Virus record (IMG/VR): IMGVR_UViG_3300014205_000176 | Reading direction: 5' to 3' (one strand) | DNA length: 58,247 nucleotides | From: a virus | Taxonomy: Duplodnaviria; Heunggongvirae; Uroviricota; Caudoviricetes | Part shown: one piece after another, positions 5,413 to 35,256 of the stretch | How the letters are laid out: the number at the start of each line of letters is the position of its first letter | Numbering within the stretch: the stretch's first letter is position 1 | Program-made: the position numbers and the translations under genes | Notes under the pieces: generated by a model | What the model was told of the DNA's origin: nothing | The model's database searches: none | What the model saw: only the letters and a program-made list of their open reading frames with translations

Positions 5413-5480
5413 GATCTTTAATTAAGATCTTTAATTAATTAATTAATTAAGATTAAAGATCATATTACCGAAGGTAATAT
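5413..5480. repeat. AT-rich palindromic tract with (TTAA)5 and a hairpin
   Basis: GATCTTTAATTAA x2; (TTAA)5 at 5431-5450; ATATTACC-GAA-GGTAATAT at 5462-5480. Confidence 0.85.
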
Positions 5481-5540
5481 GGCACGTGGTTTTTAGTGGT
5501 TTTCAATTGATGTTACCAAAGAATTCAAAGTTTGATTTAG

Positions 5541-5861
5541 GTGCAAATGGAATTTCAAGGACTACCAGGAATAGAAGAGTATTTAGAATCTCGTGCTAAT
5601 GGGTGTCCAATAGATGTATCTGAATTAGATCATGTATCCGAATCTCTAGTTGCTTATTGTGGTCTAACAAAGGAACAAGCAAAAAGAATTTTAGCTCAGT
5701 TCTTTCAAGTAATTAGATCTACAATGCTCAATGGTAATGTTGTTGATATTAGAGGGTTCGGATCATTTTTTATATCGAGCCCATCTGTGTCGTCGAATTC
5801 AAAGAAAGTATTTCCGAAATTCAAGGCGAAGAGATCATTGTCGAGAAGACTCAATGGATAA
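5541..5861 (+). CDS. HU/IHF-like DNA-binding protein
   Basis: GLTKEQAKRIL...VVDIRGFGSF...PKFKAKRSL pattern. Confidence 0.85.
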   Translation: MQMEFQGLPGIEEYLESRANGCPIDVSELDHVSESLVAYCGLTKEQAKRILAQFFQVIRSTMLNGNVVDIRGFGSFFISSPSVSSNSKKVFPKFKAKRSLSRRLNG

Positions 5862-6108
5862 AACAACATCAGAATCATTAGCTGCCATTGTAATTAGTAA
5901 TAGAATTCTTGGTCTATATTCGGATGAGGCTAAAGTTTGTATGAGTGAATTGCTCCGTCGTAGGGAAGATGATGGAGATTCATTTGAATTCGAAAAATAT
6001 ATCAATGATCAGATAGAAATAGTAAACGGACTTAATGATAAATCTAGAGAAGGTAATGGCCTTATAAATCTGATTTCAAGCTTATCATCTATAGGAAGAA
6101 TGATATGA
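5854..6108 (+). CDS. hypothetical protein
   Basis: ATG at 5854 overlaps the upstream gene end; operon-like packing. Confidence 0.65.
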   Translation: MDKTTSESLAAIVISNRILGLYSDEAKVCMSELLRRREDDGDSFEFEKYINDQIEIVNGLNDKSREGNGLINLISSLSSIGRMI

Positions 6109-6626
6109 GAGAGTTTGATCTTTGCAAAGAACTATCACTAAAGCTGGCTAAGGATCTTGGTGTAACACCATTTTCAATTGGAAAGACTAGTCTGACACAT
6201 CCTGATCTGTTGACAAAGTTGACACTAAATGTTTCAGATGAAAATGGGGGAGATGTTCGGAAGGTGCCGATTTGGTACGGGGAAGCTGTTGGGGCAGAGG
6301 GGATTTCGTGCGGTGTTTTAGCCGGTCTTGACACTGATCCGGACAAATTGGAGTTTGCATTTGTTCTTGGATTCAAAGACTTTGATGGAGAATTTCAAAC
6401 TGATGGAGTTAGGCTTTCGTTCCATTACGACTGGGCAAATGAGGAAGATCCAGGTACAATAGTAATGAAAGCTGGAGATAAATGGTTGCCGATCAGTTTG
6501 GCCCAGCGGCTGCAGCTAATTCTCGGATTCGAAACTATGGTTCAGGATGGTGTGCTGTGGCAGGCGTCCCCGAATCTTCCAGAAGAACTTAGGAAAGATC
6601 TGGCTGAGATAATCGAGGTTGACTAA
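6105..6626 (+). CDS. hypothetical protein
   Basis: 173-aa ORF, ATGA overlap. Confidence 0.7.
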   Translation: MREFDLCKELSLKLAKDLGVTPFSIGKTSLTHPDLLTKLTLNVSDENGGDVRKVPIWYGEAVGAEGISCGVLAGLDTDPDKLEFAFVLGFKDFDGEFQTDGVRLSFHYDWANEEDPGTIVMKAGDKWLPISLAQRLQLILGFETMVQDGVLWQASPNLPEELRKDLAEIIEVD

Positions 6627-23600: not shown

Positions 23601-23845
23601 GTGCAAGAAAGCCCCTGCCTTTAGGCAGGGGATGAATTGCCAATTATTAATAAGTCGAGAGATACTAATACTACCCTAGAATATCAGATGTTTAAAGCTT
23701 TCAAATATAGAATCTATCCCAATTCTTCTTAATCAGAAGAATTAGTAAATATTCTACAATTCGACATGGAACAGGCCGAATTCAAATGCCTTGATGCCCG
23801 AAGGGCCGAAAGGAAGCCCACAGGCTAGTCCTGTGGGTAGTTCAC
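23601..23845 (+). mobile_element. miniature non-autonomous IS200/IS605 (IS1341-like, tnpB-derived) element
   Basis: left-end hairpin GCCCCTGCC-TTTA-GGCAGGGG; tnpB start MFKAFKYRIYPNSS* (23688-23732); tnpB-like 3' remnant; right-end hairpin CCCACAGG-CTAGT-CCTGTGGG followed by TAGTTCAC; left boundary uncertain by about 3 nt. Confidence 0.85.
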
Positions 23846-26268
23846 ATAACTATGGTCAGTTTATCTGTACTCCTAGTCGCGCCAGTGTATAACCAACGGC
23901 GGTAGTTGTCCTCGCTGACTGGGGCTGGTCTTTCGTTGAACAGGATGACGTTTCCCATCTGTGACCCCTGACAATTCCAGCCACAAAATCCATTTTGTAT
24001 GAATTGATTTCCCTCTGGAACTGTCACACATATAGATTCCGTATCAGATACCTCTTCAATTGAATAGATTTTTGTATGATGATAATTTAATTTCTCATTT
24101 TCACTATCAATTTTCATCAGATTATCTCTAGAAATATACCCTGCTATTTTAGAATTATTTCGTGTTGAGCTGTCTTTTATCAGATTAGCGAATTGTTTTG
24201 AAATTGGTATTCGAAATTTTCTAAAGGCCTGGAACTTAAGTAATAACCTATCATTTTTAAATGAAGAAACAAATCCAATTTTATCTTTAAATATCTTACA
24301 GTATGACCCATAAATACACAATCTATAATTATTGTTATATGGAAATATACTTGAAACGATCCCAAACCCCAACAACATTAATTGTACTATTTTTATCACA
24401 TCTAGTTTTTTATTAGAAAATTCGATATGATCTATTTTCCCGCGTTTTATATTTACCGTAGCGTCTTCAAATAAACCTTTTAAGAATTTACATCTAATAG
24501 AATTATTACATGCGAGAATACATTTTGGAATGTTTTTTGTATGTGGAGATAATCCATCTATACAAGAAAGCCAAGAAGATAGTTGGGTGGAATTTATTTC
24601 AGAGGTATACCACCCAAGTTTGTGTTCTGTTCTGCTTTCTTTAGGTTCCACACCAAATAGAACTCTACACAAATGGGAAAATCTATCTGTTACATCTTTG
24701 TGTCTTTTAGCTAATCTGAATCCTTTTTTAAAAATGCACCCGTCAGCCACCATAAGACCAAGAAATTCTGCGAAATCTTCACTAACTAAAGATGGTAAAT
24801 TATAAATTTTTGCTCTTATATCTGTGTTTATATCAGATGGTAATAGATATGTTGTTTTACAAGTAATTGGCGGCAACAGAGATATTCTAGTTATATCATT
24901 TACAGATAACTCAGCAAATGTTTTTCTTTCATAATTTCCAGAGTTAACATTCCATATATCGATACCATGATCTATTGTAGCAGTTAATGAATATCCTTCT
25001 TTAGTTTTGATTTTGAGCATTTTCTGCTTAGTTGATATTTTATTAATGTATTTTTTTTCTCCATATGGGGATAATATACTGCCACAATTTTGTATTTCAC
25101 TTATTCTTTGAAGTCCGAATTCTGTTTCTATAAATGTGTGTGGGTGAACACATTTATGAACTGTCAGGGCGTATCCGTAGTCAAAGAGCAACCCTACTTC
25201 GTTCCAGTGTTTCACTTCCATACCGAAAGTTTCAAGCTCAGAGAATGAACTGAAGGTTTTCTGGTATCCGAATTGATACTTGCAGAGATTGTTTACCTTC
25301 ACTTCAACTCCTTCATATGGAAAGTTGAGTTTGGCTGACCAGAAGTGATCATCAATCTCAGTAACTCCAGATTCAAAGTACCCGCGATATCCATTGTACA
25401 TCGGTGGTTGCTTAGAATTTACTTTTACAACGTTACGTAAGCAGATCACTAGGTCATTTGAAAGAGGTACTTGGCTTACGTTGCCAAATACAACGTTTCG
25501 AATCATGGTATTCAACCGTACCCTAGTAGCGTTCATGTAACAAAGAACTGCGCAGTCTAGAATGTCCTCTGGATCTTGGCGGCCTTTGTACACCTGCCTC
25601 AAGTAATCTACGTATTGAGACTTTGGAACGATTGAAATGTGATTATTGTCGGATAATGATGGTGGTATCTTGCCAGTTTCCCTAACCACCATAGATAAAT
25701 GTATGATTGGATTGTCCTGTGCCTGCCTATGAATCTTCTCCAAGCGCAAGATTGGAGCCTGCATTAGAGAGAACTTACCTTCAATAGGTGGTAGCTGCCC
25801 ATGATCTCCAACTGCAAGTACATCAATACCATATGAGGATAGGTCTCTGAAGATATCCTCAGAGATCATAGAGGCTTCATCAAGAACTATAACGTCATAA
25901 TCTAACTTTGGGTTCTTTGCCCAGTACACAACTTCGCCTTTATCATCTTCAATCGGTTTGTAGATGAGGCGATGAATGGTTCCGCAGTAGTGGCCGCCAT
26001 CCCCGAAGGTAATTCCCTGGGCTCGAAGCTTGGTCCCAAGGATCGATGCGGCTCTACCGGACAGTGCGCAGAAGGCAAATCGAATGGCCGTTCCAAATTC
26101 CTTTGCAAGAACCGATGTAAGCGTAGACTTACCTGAACCCGCATACCCACCCAATGTAAGTAATTGTGGGTTGGTTTGTTTGGGATGAACCTTCCCTCCA
26201 TTGGCTAGCCACCTGGCCATTATTTGGTACGCGGCCCCTTGGTCATCTGACAGAGTAATTGCGCTCAT
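23842..26268 (-). CDS. Dda/RecD2-like SF1B DNA helicase, intein-containing
   Basis: GYAGSGKST, VLDEASMI, VGDHGQLPPI, IHRQA, YALTVHK-[intein]-CQGSQ, LYTGATR; SD GGAG before the ATG at 26268. Confidence 0.92.
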   Translation of the reverse strand: MSAITLSDDQGAAYQIMARWLANGGKVHPKQTNPQLLTLGGYAGSGKSTLTSVLAKEFGTAIRFAFCALSGRAASILGTKLRAQGITFGDGGHYCGTIHRLIYKPIEDDKGEVVYWAKNPKLDYDVIVLDEASMISEDIFRDLSSYGIDVLAVGDHGQLPPIEGKFSLMQAPILRLEKIHRQAQDNPIIHLSMVVRETGKIPPSLSDNNHISIVPKSQYVDYLRQVYKGRQDPEDILDCAVLCYMNATRVRLNTMIRNVVFGNVSQVPLSNDLVICLRNVVKVNSKQPPMYNGYRGYFESGVTEIDDHFWSAKLNFPYEGVEVKVNNLCKYQFGYQKTFSSFSELETFGMEVKHWNEVGLLFDYGYALTVHKCVHPHTFIETEFGLQRISEIQNCGSILSPYGEKKYINKISTKQKMLKIKTKEGYSLTATIDHGIDIWNVNSGNYERKTFAELSVNDITRISLLPPITCKTTYLLPSDINTDIRAKIYNLPSLVSEDFAEFLGLMVADGCIFKKGFRLAKRHKDVTDRFSHLCRVLFGVEPKESRTEHKLGWYTSEINSTQLSSWLSCIDGLSPHTKNIPKCILACNNSIRCKFLKGLFEDATVNIKRGKIDHIEFSNKKLDVIKIVQLMLLGFGIVSSIFPYNNNYRLCIYGSYCKIFKDKIGFVSSFKNDRLLLKFQAFRKFRIPISKQFANLIKDSSTRNNSKIAGYISRDNLMKIDSENEKLNYHHTKIYSIEEVSDTESICVTVPEGNQFIQNGFCGWNCQGSQMGNVILFNERPAPVSEDNYRRWLYTGATRSTDKLTIVM
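23974..25152 (-). mobile_element. intein with LAGLIDADG-type homing endonuclease (393 aa)
   Basis: starts CVHPHTFIET, ends GFCGWN|C, inside the HK(S/C)QGS helicase motif; FLGLMVADG. Confidence 0.9.
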
Positions 26269-26320
26269 CCTAATTTCTCCCGCGCATCGTACACGGATCG
26301 ACCGGATATATCCAGCGATT

Positions 26321-27094
26321 ATGTCGTTTTGGAGGCCAGCAGATAGCTGTTTGTACGTAGTTTCGGACATTAATGGATTGCATAATGAACTGAAACTTAT
26401 ACTTAGTCGAATATTACCACTTAGGAAAACCGGAGGCCAAATAGATAAATTGATTCTTCTTGGTAATTACATAAGCGGAACAAGGTCACATGAAACAATT
26501 GATCTGATATTAAAAGCACAAAAGGAAACTCCAGGGCAAATCATATGTCTTCTAGGAGACAATGATCTAAAACTACTCAATTCAATTGATCCACAAGGAA
26601 CCCCAGAGGATTACGGGGCATGGCTATCGTCAGGAGGTGAAAACGCACTCCTTGGATATTTGGAACTTATAGGATCTGAACTCTCAAATCCATATCTAAT
26701 CAAACGGCAATATCTTCAAAGATTTATTCCGCAAGAACATTTAAACTTCCTGAGTTTACTTTTGCCGTATTATGAGAATGATAACTATATCTTTGTCCAT
26801 GGTGGGTGTGATCCAAATATTCCATTAGAGAAACAAAACCCATCTGTGTTAACAAAGGATAGGAGTGTATTTAATTTAGTATATAATGCCGGAAGTAGAT
26901 TTAGATGTCAATGGAATAAGACTATTATAACTGGTGGTATTGGTAAGAAGGATGGACGACCATTGGTTCATGATAAATTCATTACCCTAGATGGAAGTTA
27001 TGCCGAGAAACTCTACGTGTTGGAATTGAATTCAAGACAGATATTCTCGGCACGTAAAGGAAAGAGTAGACTTGTCAAGGAACTAATACCTTGA
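26321..27094 (+). CDS. calcineurin-like metallophosphoesterase fold with degenerate catalytic motifs
   Basis: VSDING, LGNYISG, LGDND, FVHGG correspond to DxH, GDxxDR, GNH(E/D), HGG. Confidence 0.8.
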   Translation: MSFWRPADSCLYVVSDINGLHNELKLILSRILPLRKTGGQIDKLILLGNYISGTRSHETIDLILKAQKETPGQIICLLGDNDLKLLNSIDPQGTPEDYGAWLSSGGENALLGYLELIGSELSNPYLIKRQYLQRFIPQEHLNFLSLLLPYYENDNYIFVHGGCDPNIPLEKQNPSVLTKDRSVFNLVYNAGSRFRCQWNKTIITGGIGKKDGRPLVHDKFITLDGSYAEKLYVLELNSRQIFSARKGKSRLVKELIP

Positions 27095-29727: not shown

Positions 29728-32118
29728 ATGAATAGATTTTCAGAAAAGCAAATTTCCGCCCAGGAATCTCTAACATCCAAAAGACTAGAAAGCATTTCTG
29801 TTGGATATCAAAATACTTCCAGCAAATCAAGACCAGAACAGAGTCTTATCGAATTGATGCATTGGGCCAAGGACATTGTCAGTAATCAAGATCGTGGTGA
29901 TTGGGTTCCGTTTATTCACAACAAGATTAGTATTGATGGTTCATTCTTACAATTCTGCGAAGAAACTGGAGTAACTGTCAAAGCTCTTCATACCGATGCA
30001 ATTACTTCTTGGCAAAGTGACTTTCATGATGAACACTTTGTTGGAGTTGGAATATTCAACATACAAAAAGACGATCTTAAGTTCTATCATTGTGGATTAT
30101 TCCATAAGGGAAACCAGAATGAGGACGAGGTTAGCTTTTTTGTTTTGGTTAAGCGGACAGATTTTGAAGCTTATATATCCTTACGTAATGAATATGAAGC
30201 TTGGCAGAATAAGAGGGAGCGTGACAGCCAGGAGATTGAGGTTATTGGTGGTGATGCAATTCCATATGATCCGAGTACTTCTTGGGATGATATCTTCTTA
30301 CCAGATGATTTGAAGAGTAGGATTATTACTACCATCGATGGCTTCCTTGGATCTAAGGCCATTTATGAAAAGTTGAAGGTTCCGTGGCGGCGCGGGATTG
30401 GATTTTGGGGTTCTAGGGGCTGCCATGCTGCTGGTACTGGAATATTAATGTATGATGGTACAGTGAAAAAAGTTGAAGATGTGGTAGTTGGTGATTTGTT
30501 AATGGGTCCAGATTCTAAGCAACGAGAAGTTCTTAAATTAGTTTCTGGCTCTGATGAAATGTTTGAGATACAACCAACAAAATCAGATCCTTTTATTGTT
30601 AATAAGGATCATATTCTTCATCTTCGGTGCCGTAGGCCAAGACCAACCGTTCCACCAAAACTCAATATAACAGTATCAGATTTTTTAAGTCTAACTCAAA
30701 ATGCTCAAAAAAACAATTATCAAATGTGTTTGTCTCCAGCTTTAGAGTTTGGAGTTAACCAAACTCTAAAGCTGGATCCATATTTTTTGGGTATATGGCT
30801 TGGTGATGGTAGTAGTCATGAAGCATCAATTACCACAGCAGATCTTGAAATAGATAATTTTGTATGCAATTTTGCTATACAATATTCTTGTCAAGTTACG
30901 AGAACGAAATCTGTTGCTACGGCAAAATGCGATACGTTACACATAGTTAGTGGTGGGAAAAGGAATCCTATAAATGCATTATTGCGAGAGATAAACGTAT
31001 TAGATAATAAACATATACCTTACCAATATCTAACAGCATCGATTGATGATCGTTTGAAATTACTTGCAGGTATTATTGATACAGACGGTTGTTATACTAG
31101 TGTAACCTGGAGAGGAACTGAAAAATTAAACAAAAAAGGCAAAGGATATAAGGGCTATTTTGAAGTACTGCAAAAGAGTCAACAATTAACGAAAGATATA
31201 TGTTTCTTGGTTAAAAGTCTTGGGTTACAGGTAACTGTAAAGGAATGTATTAAGAATATAAAATCCATTAATTTTTCTGGTCGATATTATAGGATTGGTA
31301 TATTTGGAAATATTGAAAAGGTTCCGGTTATATTACCAAGAAAGAAAGCGATTTTGGGAAGGCCTAATAAAATGCCGTTGATCCGGGGGATTAAATCCAT
31401 TAGGAGTATGGGTGTTGGAAATTATTATGGATTTGTATTAGATAAAGATCATTTATATTTAACAGATGATTTTTATATACATCACAACTGCGGAAAAACC
31501 TCAACTCTTCGGGTAATTATGGCGCAATACCCGCAGCTAAAGCCGGTTACTATTCAGCCTGGGCATTCGACTCCTGATGAATTGTTAGAGGAAGCTTTTG
31601 AATATGCCGAGCAGCATTCCCCTGCACTTTTATTCTTTGAAGATCTGCAAGAGTTGGTTAAGACAATTGATATTCGTCATTTTCTGCAGCTTTTGGATGG
31701 ACTACAGAAGCGCGATGGCATTTTGACGGTGGTAACTGGCAATGATTTTTCTAACTTGGAAGAGAATTTGAAGAGTCGTCCGCGTCGTTTTGATAGTTTC
31801 TTTGAATTTCCATTGCCGGATGTTAATCAAACCACAAAATATCTTAATAGATATCTAGTTGATATATTACCAAGTAAGAAGATTGCAGCAATTGCAAAGA
31901 AGGCTGTTAAGAATAAACTTACCTATGCTCATTTGCAAGAGCTTTATTTCAATGCTGTATTCATCGCTATACCTGAAGGTCGAGAATTACCGAACGAGGA
32001 CAACTTAGAATTGTCTCTAAAACAAGTTTTGAAAGAAAAGAAAGCAGCAGATTCTGACTTTGCAGAGAGACAGCGTGACCTAACAGATGACGAAGAAGAG
32101 GATGGAGAGGAAATATGA
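29728..32118 (+). CDS. AAA+ ATPase, intein-containing
   Basis: Walker A GSRG-[intein]-CGKT; Walker B LLFFEDLQ; LLDG; RPRRFD. Confidence 0.88.
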   Translation: MNRFSEKQISAQESLTSKRLESISVGYQNTSSKSRPEQSLIELMHWAKDIVSNQDRGDWVPFIHNKISIDGSFLQFCEETGVTVKALHTDAITSWQSDFHDEHFVGVGIFNIQKDDLKFYHCGLFHKGNQNEDEVSFFVLVKRTDFEAYISLRNEYEAWQNKRERDSQEIEVIGGDAIPYDPSTSWDDIFLPDDLKSRIITTIDGFLGSKAIYEKLKVPWRRGIGFWGSRGCHAAGTGILMYDGTVKKVEDVVVGDLLMGPDSKQREVLKLVSGSDEMFEIQPTKSDPFIVNKDHILHLRCRRPRPTVPPKLNITVSDFLSLTQNAQKNNYQMCLSPALEFGVNQTLKLDPYFLGIWLGDGSSHEASITTADLEIDNFVCNFAIQYSCQVTRTKSVATAKCDTLHIVSGGKRNPINALLREINVLDNKHIPYQYLTASIDDRLKLLAGIIDTDGCYTSVTWRGTEKLNKKGKGYKGYFEVLQKSQQLTKDICFLVKSLGLQVTVKECIKNIKSINFSGRYYRIGIFGNIEKVPVILPRKKAILGRPNKMPLIRGIKSIRSMGVGNYYGFVLDKDHLYLTDDFYIHHNCGKTSTLRVIMAQYPQLKPVTIQPGHSTPDELLEEAFEYAEQHSPALLFFEDLQELVKTIDIRHFLQLLDGLQKRDGILTVVTGNDFSNLEENLKSRPRRFDSFFEFPLPDVNQTTKYLNRYLVDILPSKKIAAIAKKAVKNKLTYAHLQELYFNAVFIAIPEGRELPNEDNLELSLKQVLKEKKAADSDFAERQRDLTDDEEEDGEEI
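30421..31488 (+). mobile_element. intein with LAGLIDADG homing endonuclease (356 aa)
   Basis: starts CHAAGTGILMYDG, ends YIHHN|C; FLGIWLGDG and LLAGIIDTDG. Confidence 0.93.
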
Positions 32119-32447
32119 GAGGAAGCATTTTAGATCCCAATAGTATTAGGCCTATCGAAGTTAAAGTGGAGGGATCTTCACGTGAAGACTTCGAATATGC
32201 ATACCGAAAATTCAAGGCTTTGTTTCAAAGGGAGCGTATCGTTGGGCAGATTAAGGAACGCATGGCTTATGAAAAGCCGAGTGCCAAGAAGCGTCGCAAG
32301 GCGCGGGAGGCAGTGGATCGTAGGATGATGACCCAGATTCGAGAGAATATGGTTAAGACTGGTGAATGGGATCGCCGTCAGAAGGCACGGGCACAAACCC
32401 AAATACGAAGGGACGAAAAGAGATCTGAGGGAATGTATGAACGATGA
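32115..32447 (+). CDS. rpsU: ribosomal protein bS21 homologue with a C-terminal extension
   Basis: IEVKV...FEYAYRKFK...YEKPSAKKRRKAREA. Confidence 0.88.
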   Translation: MRGSILDPNSIRPIEVKVEGSSREDFEYAYRKFKALFQRERIVGQIKERMAYEKPSAKKRRKAREAVDRRMMTQIRENMVKTGEWDRRQKARAQTQIRRDEKRSEGMYER

Positions 32448-33483
32448 TAAAGATGCTGTAGAAAGAATTCTGGAGGCTAAGACGAGACAACCAGAGCATC
32501 AGCGTTTGGATATGGAACCAAAAGTTGGTGGCAATTCATTGCTTCATGATGAATTCGGAATGCCGAAAGTTAGCGGTGGCCATAGGCGTAATGTTCCTGA
32601 AATAAAAGAGATTAGTGGTGAACCTGTTGTAGTAAAAGCCTCAAAACCAAGCTCTAAAATTTCTTTTAAGAAACCGAACCAACCAACTCAGCCAAAAGTC
32701 GAAGACGATGATCACTTCATACCTCCAAAGTCAAACTTTGTGGCTGTTGGTCATGTAGAACATTCTTGGTATGATGATAAAGTAGCTGGACCATCTGTAG
32801 TGGATAATAATGAAGAAGTTGATATTGAGAAACTACAGGGACTAAATCCATTAGTTGATATTGACAATGCTAAGATTGCAAAATCTGTAGAGTTCTTCAG
32901 AAAGAAATTGACGTATGTCAAGAATTTCACTGTAACTGAACTGGCCGAAGTTAACGACGAACAAGACCTATCAGATCTTAAAGTAAAAATCTTTGGCAAT
33001 AAGGGTATATTCACAGATATCCTCAAGAAATTGGGTTCACTGAAAGCAGCAGATAGACCAGTAATTGGAGAACTTGTCAACCTGGTGTATTCAGAGCTTC
33101 AATTGGAGATTGAAGGCAAGGCTTATGAGTTAGAATCTGAGGCGGCGGAGGCTAACGAGGTCACCGAATGGCCAGAGGATATGGCGGTCATTACACGAGA
33201 CGAAGAGCCGGATGAAGAAGATGAAGATGAAATACCGGATGAAGAAACAGAAGAGAATGAAGCAGATGATGAAGAATCTTCTAATTCATCTTCAGATTCC
33301 CAAACCGTTCCCGAAGGACACTATGCAATCATTGTGGATGGGAAGTTGCTAAATATTGTAGAAAGTGCCAATAAGGCCAGCGATGTCATTTCACATCTGC
33401 TATTGAGTGAAAATTTGACTCTTGATAGTATTCAATTAATCAAGAGGATTAAGATTGATTTCGGAATAATTCTGGGAGAATAA
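32437..33483 (+). CDS. acidic protein containing a PheRS-alpha N-terminal (tRNA-binding coiled-coil)-like domain
   Basis: DLSDLKVKIFGNKGIFTDILKKLGSLKAADRPVIGELVN matches the Phe_tRNA-synt_N pattern; no catalytic domain. Confidence 0.8.
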   Translation: MNDDKDAVERILEAKTRQPEHQRLDMEPKVGGNSLLHDEFGMPKVSGGHRRNVPEIKEISGEPVVVKASKPSSKISFKKPNQPTQPKVEDDDHFIPPKSNFVAVGHVEHSWYDDKVAGPSVVDNNEEVDIEKLQGLNPLVDIDNAKIAKSVEFFRKKLTYVKNFTVTELAEVNDEQDLSDLKVKIFGNKGIFTDILKKLGSLKAADRPVIGELVNLVYSELQLEIEGKAYELESEAAEANEVTEWPEDMAVITRDEEPDEEDEDEIPDEETEENEADDEESSNSSSDSQTVPEGHYAIIVDGKLLNIVESANKASDVISHLLLSENLTLDSIQLIKRIKIDFGIILGE

Positions 33484-34151
33484 TGGCTGACGGAGATAAA
33501 AGGGCGGCGACAGATATTCTATTATCTATAGAGTCTAAACTGATTACGCTAGATAAGCGAGTTCAGAATAGCGAATATCTATTAAAGAATTTATTAGGGA
33601 AAGCTAACAAGGCTCAATCTGTTCCACCGCCCGCTTCTTCTACAGCAGTTCCCAAGATGGCCGCTCCTTATCCAATTGATGTGATCAATAAAGATAATTT
33701 TGAGAGCAGACCGAAGACGAATAGATTTTCAGAGATAGCTGCAAGTCAGGGTCTAAACCTAGATGAGATGCCAAGTAATTATGTAGCGAAGCCTGCTGAG
33801 AATGGTGGGGATATGGTGGAGGCTTCTAAGCGTGGAACCTCACGTGGCCAGAGAGGTCCGAAACCTGGTCCAAAATCTACGGTAACCCAAGTATTGAATC
33901 GTGGAAATGAAGTGTTGTTTTTAGCTAATATAGAAGTTCTAGATACAAATAACGAACTTATAAGTCAAACAAGAACTAATACTAAAGGTCGATGGATGAT
34001 GTCGTTGGCCCCTGGAGATTATCAGGTACATGTCATCAAGAGATTTCCACCAGATAGTGGCAAGAAGTCAATTGATACTTTGTACCAGATTAGTGTGCCT
34101 CCCTCGGATATTCCGTTGGAGCTTGACCCATTCGTAGTTGATATGGGGTAA
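33483..34151 (+). CDS. hypothetical protein with a C-terminal prealbumin/carboxypeptidase-regulatory-like beta domain
   Basis: ANIEVLDTNNELISQTRTNTKGRWMMSLAPGDYQV. Confidence 0.7.
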   Translation: MADGDKRAATDILLSIESKLITLDKRVQNSEYLLKNLLGKANKAQSVPPPASSTAVPKMAAPYPIDVINKDNFESRPKTNRFSEIAASQGLNLDEMPSNYVAKPAENGGDMVEASKRGTSRGQRGPKPGPKSTVTQVLNRGNEVLFLANIEVLDTNNELISQTRTNTKGRWMMSLAPGDYQVHVIKRFPPDSGKKSIDTLYQISVPPSDIPLELDPFVVDMG

Positions 34152-34405: not shown

Positions 34406-34502
34406 AGGCTAGTCGAGAGGGCTGAGCCCGAGGCAATAAGGCTGGTAGATGCGTTTCTGTGACGTGTTTACCAGCCGTTGCTATTTGAACTAGGAACAAC
34501 AA

Positions 34503-34937
34503 ATGACTATTACTCTTTATACTGCATCATATTGGGAACCAGAAGTCCACGGACCAGGACGAAAGATTGGTATCTCTCCATCAAAACCAAAGAATTTACA
34601 AGAGGAATGTGGATACGATTGTTCTATCTGCCATGAATTCCTCTCCCCAGAGAATGTATATTGGGACTATCACAAAGCTAAGAAGGCCGCTGATGGTGAT
34701 GATGTCTTGATGAAGAAGGCTGGTGACGATTTTGTGATCGGGTACAAGAACCGCCTACAAGATTTCAAAACCACTCTTGAAAATGAATCTAAGCAAACTG
34801 GGCAGTCAATTCAAACTCTCATTGGTTTTGAAGATGGGGATACATTGCTGTCCTGGGAACGTGGTGGACATACGAGTTTCAGGGAACATGCTGCAGCTTT
34901 CTTACGCGAGTTAGGTTATGAAGTTATCGAACGTTAA
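34503..34937 (+). CDS. hypothetical protein
   Basis: 144-aa ORF with SD. Confidence 0.7.
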   Translation: MTITLYTASYWEPEVHGPGRKIGISPSKPKNLQEECGYDCSICHEFLSPENVYWDYHKAKKAADGDDVLMKKAGDDFVIGYKNRLQDFKTTLENESKQTGQSIQTLIGFEDGDTLLSWERGGHTSFREHAAAFLRELGYEVIER

Positions 34938-35256
34938 TGTTTTACGTGAAACAATAGATGAACTAGGGCTTGATCTTCAGGCAATTGCGGATGAACATGA
35001 TCAATATTGTTTGAAAACCTCTACCGAAGATGAAGCTATGAATTGGCTTCATTCCATGCCTATTGAAAACCTATCTGATTCTTTAAATAGGGAACATCAA
35101 AGACCGAGATCTAAGTATTCCCTTCATGACATGCGACATAAGTTTGCTTTACGCAAGTTACATGAGAAGAAGAAGGAAGAGTTGGATAGACTGAAGATTG
35201 ATCTTAATATTGCAATGATTGATTCTATTATTTCTAAGATTGAGAGTGTAAAATGA
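34918..35256 (+). CDS. hypothetical protein
   Basis: 112-aa ORF, overlapping packing. Confidence 0.6.
   Translation: MKLSNVNVLRETIDELGLDLQAIADEHDQYCLKTSTEDEAMNWLHSMPIENLSDSLNREHQRPRSKYSLHDMRHKFALRKLHEKKKEELDRLKIDLNIAMIDSIISKIESVK

Follow-up and report, generated by a model that had tools for sequence, protein, structure and literature searches.

A PheS-type helical arm in an acidic giant-phage protein encoded directly after a phage bS21 gene

Trbp111/CsaA, Arc1p, and AIMP1/EMAPII are free-standing tRNA-binding paralogues of domains appended to aminoacyl-tRNA synthetases; they are of OB-fold type, related to domains of MetRS and of the beta subunit of phenylalanyl-tRNA synthetase (PheRS), and Trbp111 recognizes the tRNA elbow. 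To our knowledge, none of them is phage-encoded or linked to the ribosomal protein bS21, and none is homologous to the N-terminal arm of PheS, the alpha subunit of PheRS. In the PheRS-tRNA complex of M. tuberculosis, this arm, an all-helical alpha1 domain, binds the D-loop region, with hydrogen bonds from Arg45, Arg56, Asp37, Asn64, and Ala57 to G19/U20 and C56/G57 of the tRNA elbow (PMC8136816). Apo structures of PheRS leave the arm unresolved (residues 1-88 or 1-74), and it becomes ordered only upon tRNA binding (PMC8599791 and PMC7948948); tRNA contact is therefore its sole documented role, without a stable docking site on the enzyme. The bS21 proteins of huge phages and Bacteroidota phages form a second described system; they are extended and predicted to replace host bS21 (PMC6375957, PMC7162821, and PMC9723584), and a co-evolving hypothetical neighbor gene, bS21_CN, was described by Chen 2022 (PMC9723584) on the strand opposite to bS21, which lies there among capsid genes. 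The window analyzed here is the whole stretch of 58,247 nucleotides of the IMG/VR virus record IMGVR_UViG_3300014205_000176 (Caudoviricetes), in which a gene here called X (32437 to 33483, plus strand) directly follows a phage bS21 gene and encodes a PheS-type arm.

The arm of protein X has the helical coiled-coil fold of the bacterial PheS N-terminal domain (alpha1; PF02912), gapless homology to it, and its tip signature, but is detached from the class II core and from PheT, is set midway in an unrelated acidic phage protein, and is more acidic, several invariant basic residues being lost. With Trbp111-type proteins the likeness is in concept only, a tRNA-binding appendage of a synthetase occurring outside the enzyme. 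The bS21 of the window is extended like those of the huge phages, but in contrast to the arrangement of Chen 2022 it is part of a topoisomerase/AAA+ cassette, in which the partner gene overlaps it and runs in the same direction, and X is set apart from bS21_CN by this context only. The pieces are of known kinds, namely, a synthetase appendage reused outside its enzyme and a phage bS21, together with an X core without known relatives; new are the X family, its constant linkage to bS21, and the arm as an accessory to a conserved core. The architecture of X was not found in INPHARED, BFVD, 185,579 prokaryote genomes, or the literature searched, and the view of an initial annotation, made from the sequence alone, that no described phage protein of this kind was known agrees with these viral database, predicted-structure, and literature searches.

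Protein X is a phage-only protein of 348 residues, acidic with a net charge of -38, and consists of four parts: a structure-poor N-terminal region, the PheS-type arm, a poly-acidic linker, and a small C-terminal domain. It is encoded by a giant phage, as contigs of relatives reach 454-463 kb and CheckV on two IMG/VR fragments implies about 430 kb. The start codon is the ATG at 32437, which was called by independent gene callers on two other assemblies and at which the N termini of all homologs in the family alignment coincide; on the same grounds a GTG at 32362 was rejected as the start.

The N-terminal conserved region (residues 1-145, 32437 to 32871, plus strand; net charge -8) has almost no regular secondary structure in the AlphaFold2 model, with a predicted local distance difference test score (pLDDT) of 50-85, yet no other part of the family is conserved as well. 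Short motifs follow one another in it, PEYQRLDxEPKxGGxSLLHDEFG, EPVxVKA, DDxFIPPKSNFVxVG..W, and VDNNxxVDxxxLQGxNP, with invariant G32, G105, and W111; it matches no known family and had no hit in Pfam, in PDB by profile search, or in the ESM Atlas. The arm (32869 to 33165, plus strand) comprises helices at residues 145-240, with PheS homology at residues 155-243. It is followed by an acidic disordered linker (residues 244-292, 33166 to 33312, plus strand) with 24 D/E and a single K/R, a net charge of -23, and pLDDT <50, which is variable in sequence yet acidic across the family. Disorder and strong acidity, initially assigned to both flanks of the arm, hold for this C-terminal flank only. The protein ends in a beta-beta-alpha-beta mini-domain (residues 293-348, 33313 to 33480, plus strand; final motif KRIxIDFG), the most persistent element of the family, which is folded in the model (pLDDT >90; 90 when modeled alone) and had been overlooked in the initial annotation. 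The mini-domain had no sequence match in PDB, its best structural Z score was 4.0, among unrelated chains, and in the Atlas it showed a likeness of shape to DUF5678 only (template modeling score 0.69), which is uninformative on function. Uncharacterized phage proteins of 50-56 residues in BFVD (e.g., from Synechococcus phages S-SCSM1 and Syn5, gp2) align to about 40-55 residues of the X model with high Foldseek probability and E ~0.3, and may share the beta-beta-alpha-beta fold of the mini-domain.

The homology of the arm to PheS was found by sequence and by structure. The Pfam family PF02912 (Phe_tRNA-synt_N), proposed initially as a check, matched residues 173-239 of X (32953 to 33153) over profile positions 1-67 of 69 with E 6.4e-14 and 52.1 bits against a gathering cutoff of 22.3. 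It was the only Pfam match of X at E up to 10: no class II core (PF01409, motifs 1-3) was detected, as the initial annotation had stated, and no OB-fold tRNA-binding family either, the AlphaFold2 model showing the helical arm and the small beta-beta-alpha-beta domain. Outside the arm, nothing in X matched Pfam or PDB. In phmmer searches against PDB, gapless alignments were obtained with PheS of Pseudomonas aeruginosa (E 7.7e-6, X residues 172-240 to 18-86), Escherichia coli (X residues 169-243 to residues 15-89), and T. thermophilus, and a profile of 69 family arms matched these PheS chains with E 7e-9 to 4.5e-8. The E. coli sequence returned was the very one of the initial alignment; the peptide had been placed at about 32917 to 33138, of which the end is exact and the start 21 nucleotides off, its 67 residues lying at 32938 to 33138. 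When 1.8 billion cluster representatives were searched exhaustively with HMMER, the matches beyond the X family were bacterial PheS N termini, aligning residues 155-243 of X to PheS residues 2-90, and the captured piece is therefore the whole PheS N-terminal domain from the second residue onward. The closest PheS match outside the family was a partial PheS of an Oscillospiraceae metagenome-assembled genome (MAG), 42% identical. In the AlphaFold2 model, built on an alignment of 82 sequences, residues 145-240 are helical with pLDDT >92, and the top 10 Foldseek matches in PDB were all PheRS alpha chains, the best root mean square deviation being 1.2-2.3 Å over 84-87 columns; owing to the shortness of the match, the Foldseek E values did not go beyond 2.5e-3 to 7e-3. 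The X arm is a genuine PheS N-terminal arm without the enzyme domain.

At the tip, PheS has an LGKKG turn, the arginine of EERP, and G...N, for which the arm of the window has FGNKG, DRP, and GELVN; of the residues invariant in PheS, G, G, T, R, P, G, and N are retained, and the copy is among the most PheS-like of the family. Across the family, the glycine pair of GxxG (G187 and G190) is kept in about 76% and 85%, the arginine of EERP (position 207) as R or K in about 70%, G211 in about 73%, and N215 in about 49%, with Ser in another 20%; tallied over the 69 arms, the numbers are 54 for G187, 60 for G190, 53 for R/K207, 52 for G211, and 37 for N215. Mapped by their 8-residue spacing alone, the M. 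tuberculosis chain lying below the sequence-search threshold, R207 and N215 of X would correspond to M. tuberculosis alpha-Arg56 and Asn64. These are residues of the D-/T-loop elbow contact by which structures document the initial claim that the helical arm touches tRNA in PheRS (PMC8136816, PMC8599791, and PMC7948948).

The arm is a selected module in the proteins that carry it. Its length is 91-104 residues in nearly all arm-bearing members. The ratio of nonsynonymous to synonymous substitution rates (dN/dS) of the arm was 0.09 when the window was compared with a relative of 75% identity and rose to 0.17 with a more distant relative, compared to 0.5-0.7 for the linker and 0.06-0.17 for the folded or conserved parts of X, with dS near saturation in these comparisons. 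About 62 of the 69 arms still match a hidden Markov model built from bacterial PheS N termini, a model biased towards the query because its fragments were found with the X arm.

The gene preceding X encodes phage bS21 (32115 to 32447, plus strand), a protein of 110 residues with a net charge of +13 and with N- and C-terminal extensions. Its identity follows from PF01165 (E 3.8e-12, 46.2 bits against 27) and TIGR00030 (43.8 against 28.95), and it aligns to bS21 of solved ribosomes (PDB chains, E 1.5e-6 and weaker) and retains the invariant core YEKPS and KKRRK. The bS21 stop codon at 32445 to 32447 lies downstream of the X ATG, which is preceded by GAGGGA at 32427 to 32432; the overlap with rpsU noted initially is thus real, measures 11 nucleotides, and involves a true bS21. 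The phage bS21 subfamily comprises 94 clusters of 88-154 residues, mostly 107-120, with a short N-terminal extension, a C-terminal extension of about 30 residues, and an invariant GEW within TGEWDRRQK. This motif occupies residues 82-90, and bS21 chains in PDB (51-88 residues) end before the region. X or rRNA may dock at this GEW region.

A gene at the X position directly followed bS21 in all 23 loci examined, which were entered two ways, from X and from three divergent bS21 proteins, and the two genes overlap by 1 to 17 nucleotides in most of them. A frameshift fusion of bS21 and X was rejected, the frame offset being 1 or 2 depending on the locus and one relative having a 7-nucleotide gap. 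Complex prediction of X with phage bS21 scored 0.00, gave no verdict, and weighs neither for nor against binding. Among the functions initially offered for X, recruitment of the translation machinery gains weight, as the X gene appears locked to phage bS21 in every relative.

The X family is known from metagenomes only and has about 80 or more members: a word search of a 5.8-billion-protein collection gave 51 full-length proteins, query included, of which 30 carry a precomputed PF02912 match, and the exhaustive HMMER search gave 49 cluster representatives at E <= 1e-10. A word search with the arm alone returned the closest relatives only and is therefore silent about orphan arms in other architectures. 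The family was not found in 185,579 prokaryote species genomes, scanned both with the arm and with the family alignment. In IMG/VR only two loci had X relatives; a search of the two records for a PheS catalytic domain found none, which carries no weight because they are 18% and 29% fragments. By tblastn against 50,697 phage records of INPHARED, two short unannotated "Enterococcus phage" records matched the arm only, at 30% identity, and were set aside as most likely bacterial pheS fragments. One member of the bS21 subfamily (P0216) is recorded at NCBI as "MAG: 30S ribosomal protein S21 [Clostridia bacterium]"; its contig of 27 kb is probably of phage origin and was placed in a bacterial MAG by binning. 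This record and the Oscillospiraceae-like PheS arm give a weak hint of Firmicutes hosts.

Across the 23 loci the cassette has the order topoisomerase IA, (AAA+), bS21, X, Y, (o81), o144, and o112, with genes in parentheses not always present. Three lineages (L017, L020, and L022) lack the AAA+ gene, and the bS21-X pair is therefore the constant. In the window, the AAA+, bS21, X, and Y genes all overlap, by ATGA (32115 to 32118), by 11 nucleotides, and by TAATG (33481 to 33485), and the serial overlaps indicate that the four are packed as one translationally coupled unit. The first of them (29728 to 32118, plus strand) encodes a YjoB-like classical AAA+ ATPase, the stop codon of which overlaps the bS21 start; its closest PDB match is Bacillus subtilis YjoB (E 3e-23), followed by VAT, p97/Cdc48, Afg2, and Rix7. 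The ATPase carries an intein of about 355 residues in Walker A, with Hom_end_hint and a LAGLIDADG-like region and the loop reading GSRG/C...HN/CGKTS, slashes marking the intein boundaries; intein-free homologs have 433-441 residues and are 64-71% identical, X being far less conserved (37%). A UvrD-like helicase (23842 to 26370, minus strand) is also intein-split (LAGLIDADG_3 and Intein_splicing), its intein-free homologs in related phages having about 412-424 residues.

Downstream of X, gene Y (33483 to 34151, plus strand) encodes 222 residues with an N-terminal helix, a basic Pro/Gly linker, and a C-terminal CarboxypepD_reg-like beta-sandwich, and has only viral look-alikes. One small open reading frame past Y, a strong hairpin of 16 pairs with a T-rich tail (34440 to 34476, plus strand) may terminate the AAA-bS21-X-Y-o81 transcription unit, such sites being not above chance in the region. 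In nearly all related loci the cassette is followed by two overlapping genes (34503 to 35256 in the window, plus strand), of 144 and 112 residues and without a Pfam match, which may be part of the module.

The reading we prefer, tentatively and at somewhat less than even confidence, is that X is a partner of phage bS21 that would add a tRNA-elbow-binding arm to hijacked ribosomes; that X serves the take-over of translation by the phage is probable. X would be made together with phage bS21 and act on or beside the host 30S subunit, and its core would dock, through the N-terminal motifs, the C-terminal mini-domain, or both, on the platform or on bS21. Between core and arm, the acidic linker would give a flexible tether and perhaps also shield the very basic bS21; where X has the PheS-derived arm, this would hold a tRNA by its D-loop/T-loop elbow. 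Initiator or E-site tRNA would be the obvious candidates because bS21 is located at the platform and governs initiation, and the outcome would be a bias of translation on phage-modified ribosomes. The partner role best ties together the linkage to bS21, the translational coupling, the opposite charges (-38 for X and +13 for bS21), the docking-like core, the acidic tether, and the selected arm. It fits with the IF3 and peptide deformylase among the translation genes of the phage and with the prediction that bS21 of huge phages replaces host bS21 and favors phage mRNAs (PMC7162821).

Several observations weigh against this partner role. The arm is missing in 13 of the 82 aligned relatives, where 15-41 residues replace about 97 and the N-terminal region and the mini-domain are kept. 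At 5462 to 6382 of locus L022, a locus without the AAA+ gene, the gene after bS21 encodes 306 residues that have only the C-terminal mini-domain in common with X (hhalign 96.9%, E 1.8e-10), the N-terminal part being different. From the arm-less relatives and L022 together it follows that the core function does without tRNA contact. The arms themselves have also diverged: about a dozen divergent ones no longer match a PheS profile, of the PheS-invariant basic residues K35/K36 are partly and R65 almost entirely lost, the latter now Y or I, and the mean net charge is -5.1 compared to -0.7 in PheS arms. An isolated arm is only part of the tRNA interface of PheRS, and its affinity may be low. The neighbors of the cassette belong to DNA metabolism (topoisomerase, methyltransferases, and dUTPase) and not to other translation genes.

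The arm-less X genes keep their linkage to bS21, and the arm is therefore an accessory module; with a core conserved outside it, the primary function of X is probably not defined by the arm. In a quick maximum-likelihood tree of the X core, 65 arm-bearing proteins form one clade, with a support of 87 in the Shimodaira-Hasegawa-like approximate likelihood ratio test, and near the base stand the arm-less proteins, in two or three groups, along with four arm-bearing stragglers. The topology is compatible with a single origin, and because the tree has no outgroup, gain and loss of the arm cannot be distinguished on it. The arm is under purifying selection in the arm-bearing clade, yet dispensable for the X family. 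The repurposed tRNA-binding module of the initial annotation survives as a real and selected PheS arm; what had been missed is its accessory nature, as an insert in a protein family that is older and linked to bS21, with the N-terminal flank (net charge -8) the best-conserved part.

Dedicated escorts of ribosomal proteins occur in eukaryotes, namely, Tsr2 for eS26 and Yar1 for uS3, as do the AAA+ extractors Drg1/Afg2 and Rix7. X would resemble them as an acidic partner of a small basic ribosomal protein, encoded beside a classical-clade AAA+; it has no sequence or fold kinship to the escorts, and the analogy would be functional only. In one alternative reading, the acidic X could be a dedicated chaperone that keeps the basic bS21 soluble and hands it over to the 30S subunit, possibly with the YjoB-like ATPase, the arm having lost tRNA binding and serving as a rigid spacer or oligomerization element. 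This is the less improbable of the alternatives, though unlikely. The tight translational coupling, the opposite charges, the acidity of the whole family, the bS21 linkage kept by arm-less members, and an arm grown more acidic with several basic residues gone all agree with it. Against it, a tip of GxxG, Arg, Gly, and Asn kept in most members and a dN/dS of about 0.09 would be surprising for a mere spacer, the AAA+ gene is missing in three lineages, and we know of no bacterial bS21 chaperone. The closest relative of the upstream ATPase, YjoB, is itself a putative substrate-specific chaperone (PMC9565160), which again suits an escort. Both the partner and the escort may be combined in a ribosome-conversion kit of AAA+, long bS21, X, and Y, in which the ATPase would either restructure the 30S platform or pull host bS21 out of it, and X would escort phage bS21 and stay tethered while its arm clamps the elbow of initiator or E-site tRNA; this proposal is doubtful. 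If it held, the product would be a phage-specialized ribosome with a protein appendage found on no cellular ribosome.

Poly-acidic disordered phage proteins are often DNA mimics, and X lies near genes for topoisomerase IA, the UvrD-like helicase, MT-A70 and N6/N4 methyltransferases, HNH, dUTPase, and uracil-DNA glycosylase. X might then regulate the AAA+ ATPase or be its client or adaptor, or it might be an acidic mimic of nucleic acid in a block for DNA metabolism or anti-defense, with bS21 in an extraribosomal role of the kind reported for the OLE ribonucleoprotein (PMC12054373). A function outside translation is improbable, about as doubtful as the kit: the bS21 core is kept and scores above the equivalog cutoff, X follows bS21 even where AAA+ is absent, and the domain captured is that of a tRNA synthetase. 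Interference with host PheRS, another function offered initially, would be in line with the homology to PheS residues 2-90; X would either take tRNA-Phe out of circulation or occupy the place of the PheS arm on PheT. The nucleotides contacted by the arm, G19, U20, C56, and G57, are generic to the elbow, and discrimination lies mainly between the beta subunit and the anticodon region, G34 above all (PMC8136816); a decoy for PheT is unlikely, as the arm makes no stable contacts in apo PheRS (PMC8599791 and PMC7948948), and the strict linkage to bS21 and the arm-less relatives would be left unexplained. Interference with PheRS thus has very little to recommend it. The same very low probability is given to the binding of the tRNA-like RNAs of the phage itself, such as the Y-RNA-like mimics at 122 to 517, for shielding or delivery; an elbow-binding arm could in principle recognize them, but X is located 32 kb away. 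The partner role of X, acting with phage bS21, remains our preferred reading.

As far as found, X contains apparently the first PheS N-terminal arm outside PheRS, which bears on the recycling of synthetase appendages. Judged from the loci compared, one large bS21 subfamily would have X as its constant genomic partner, in most lineages with a synthetase-derived module of the tRNA-binding type. Phage-encoded bS21 is the most common viral ribosomal protein, and the re-tooling of host ribosomes by huge phages becomes directly testable on three small proteins.

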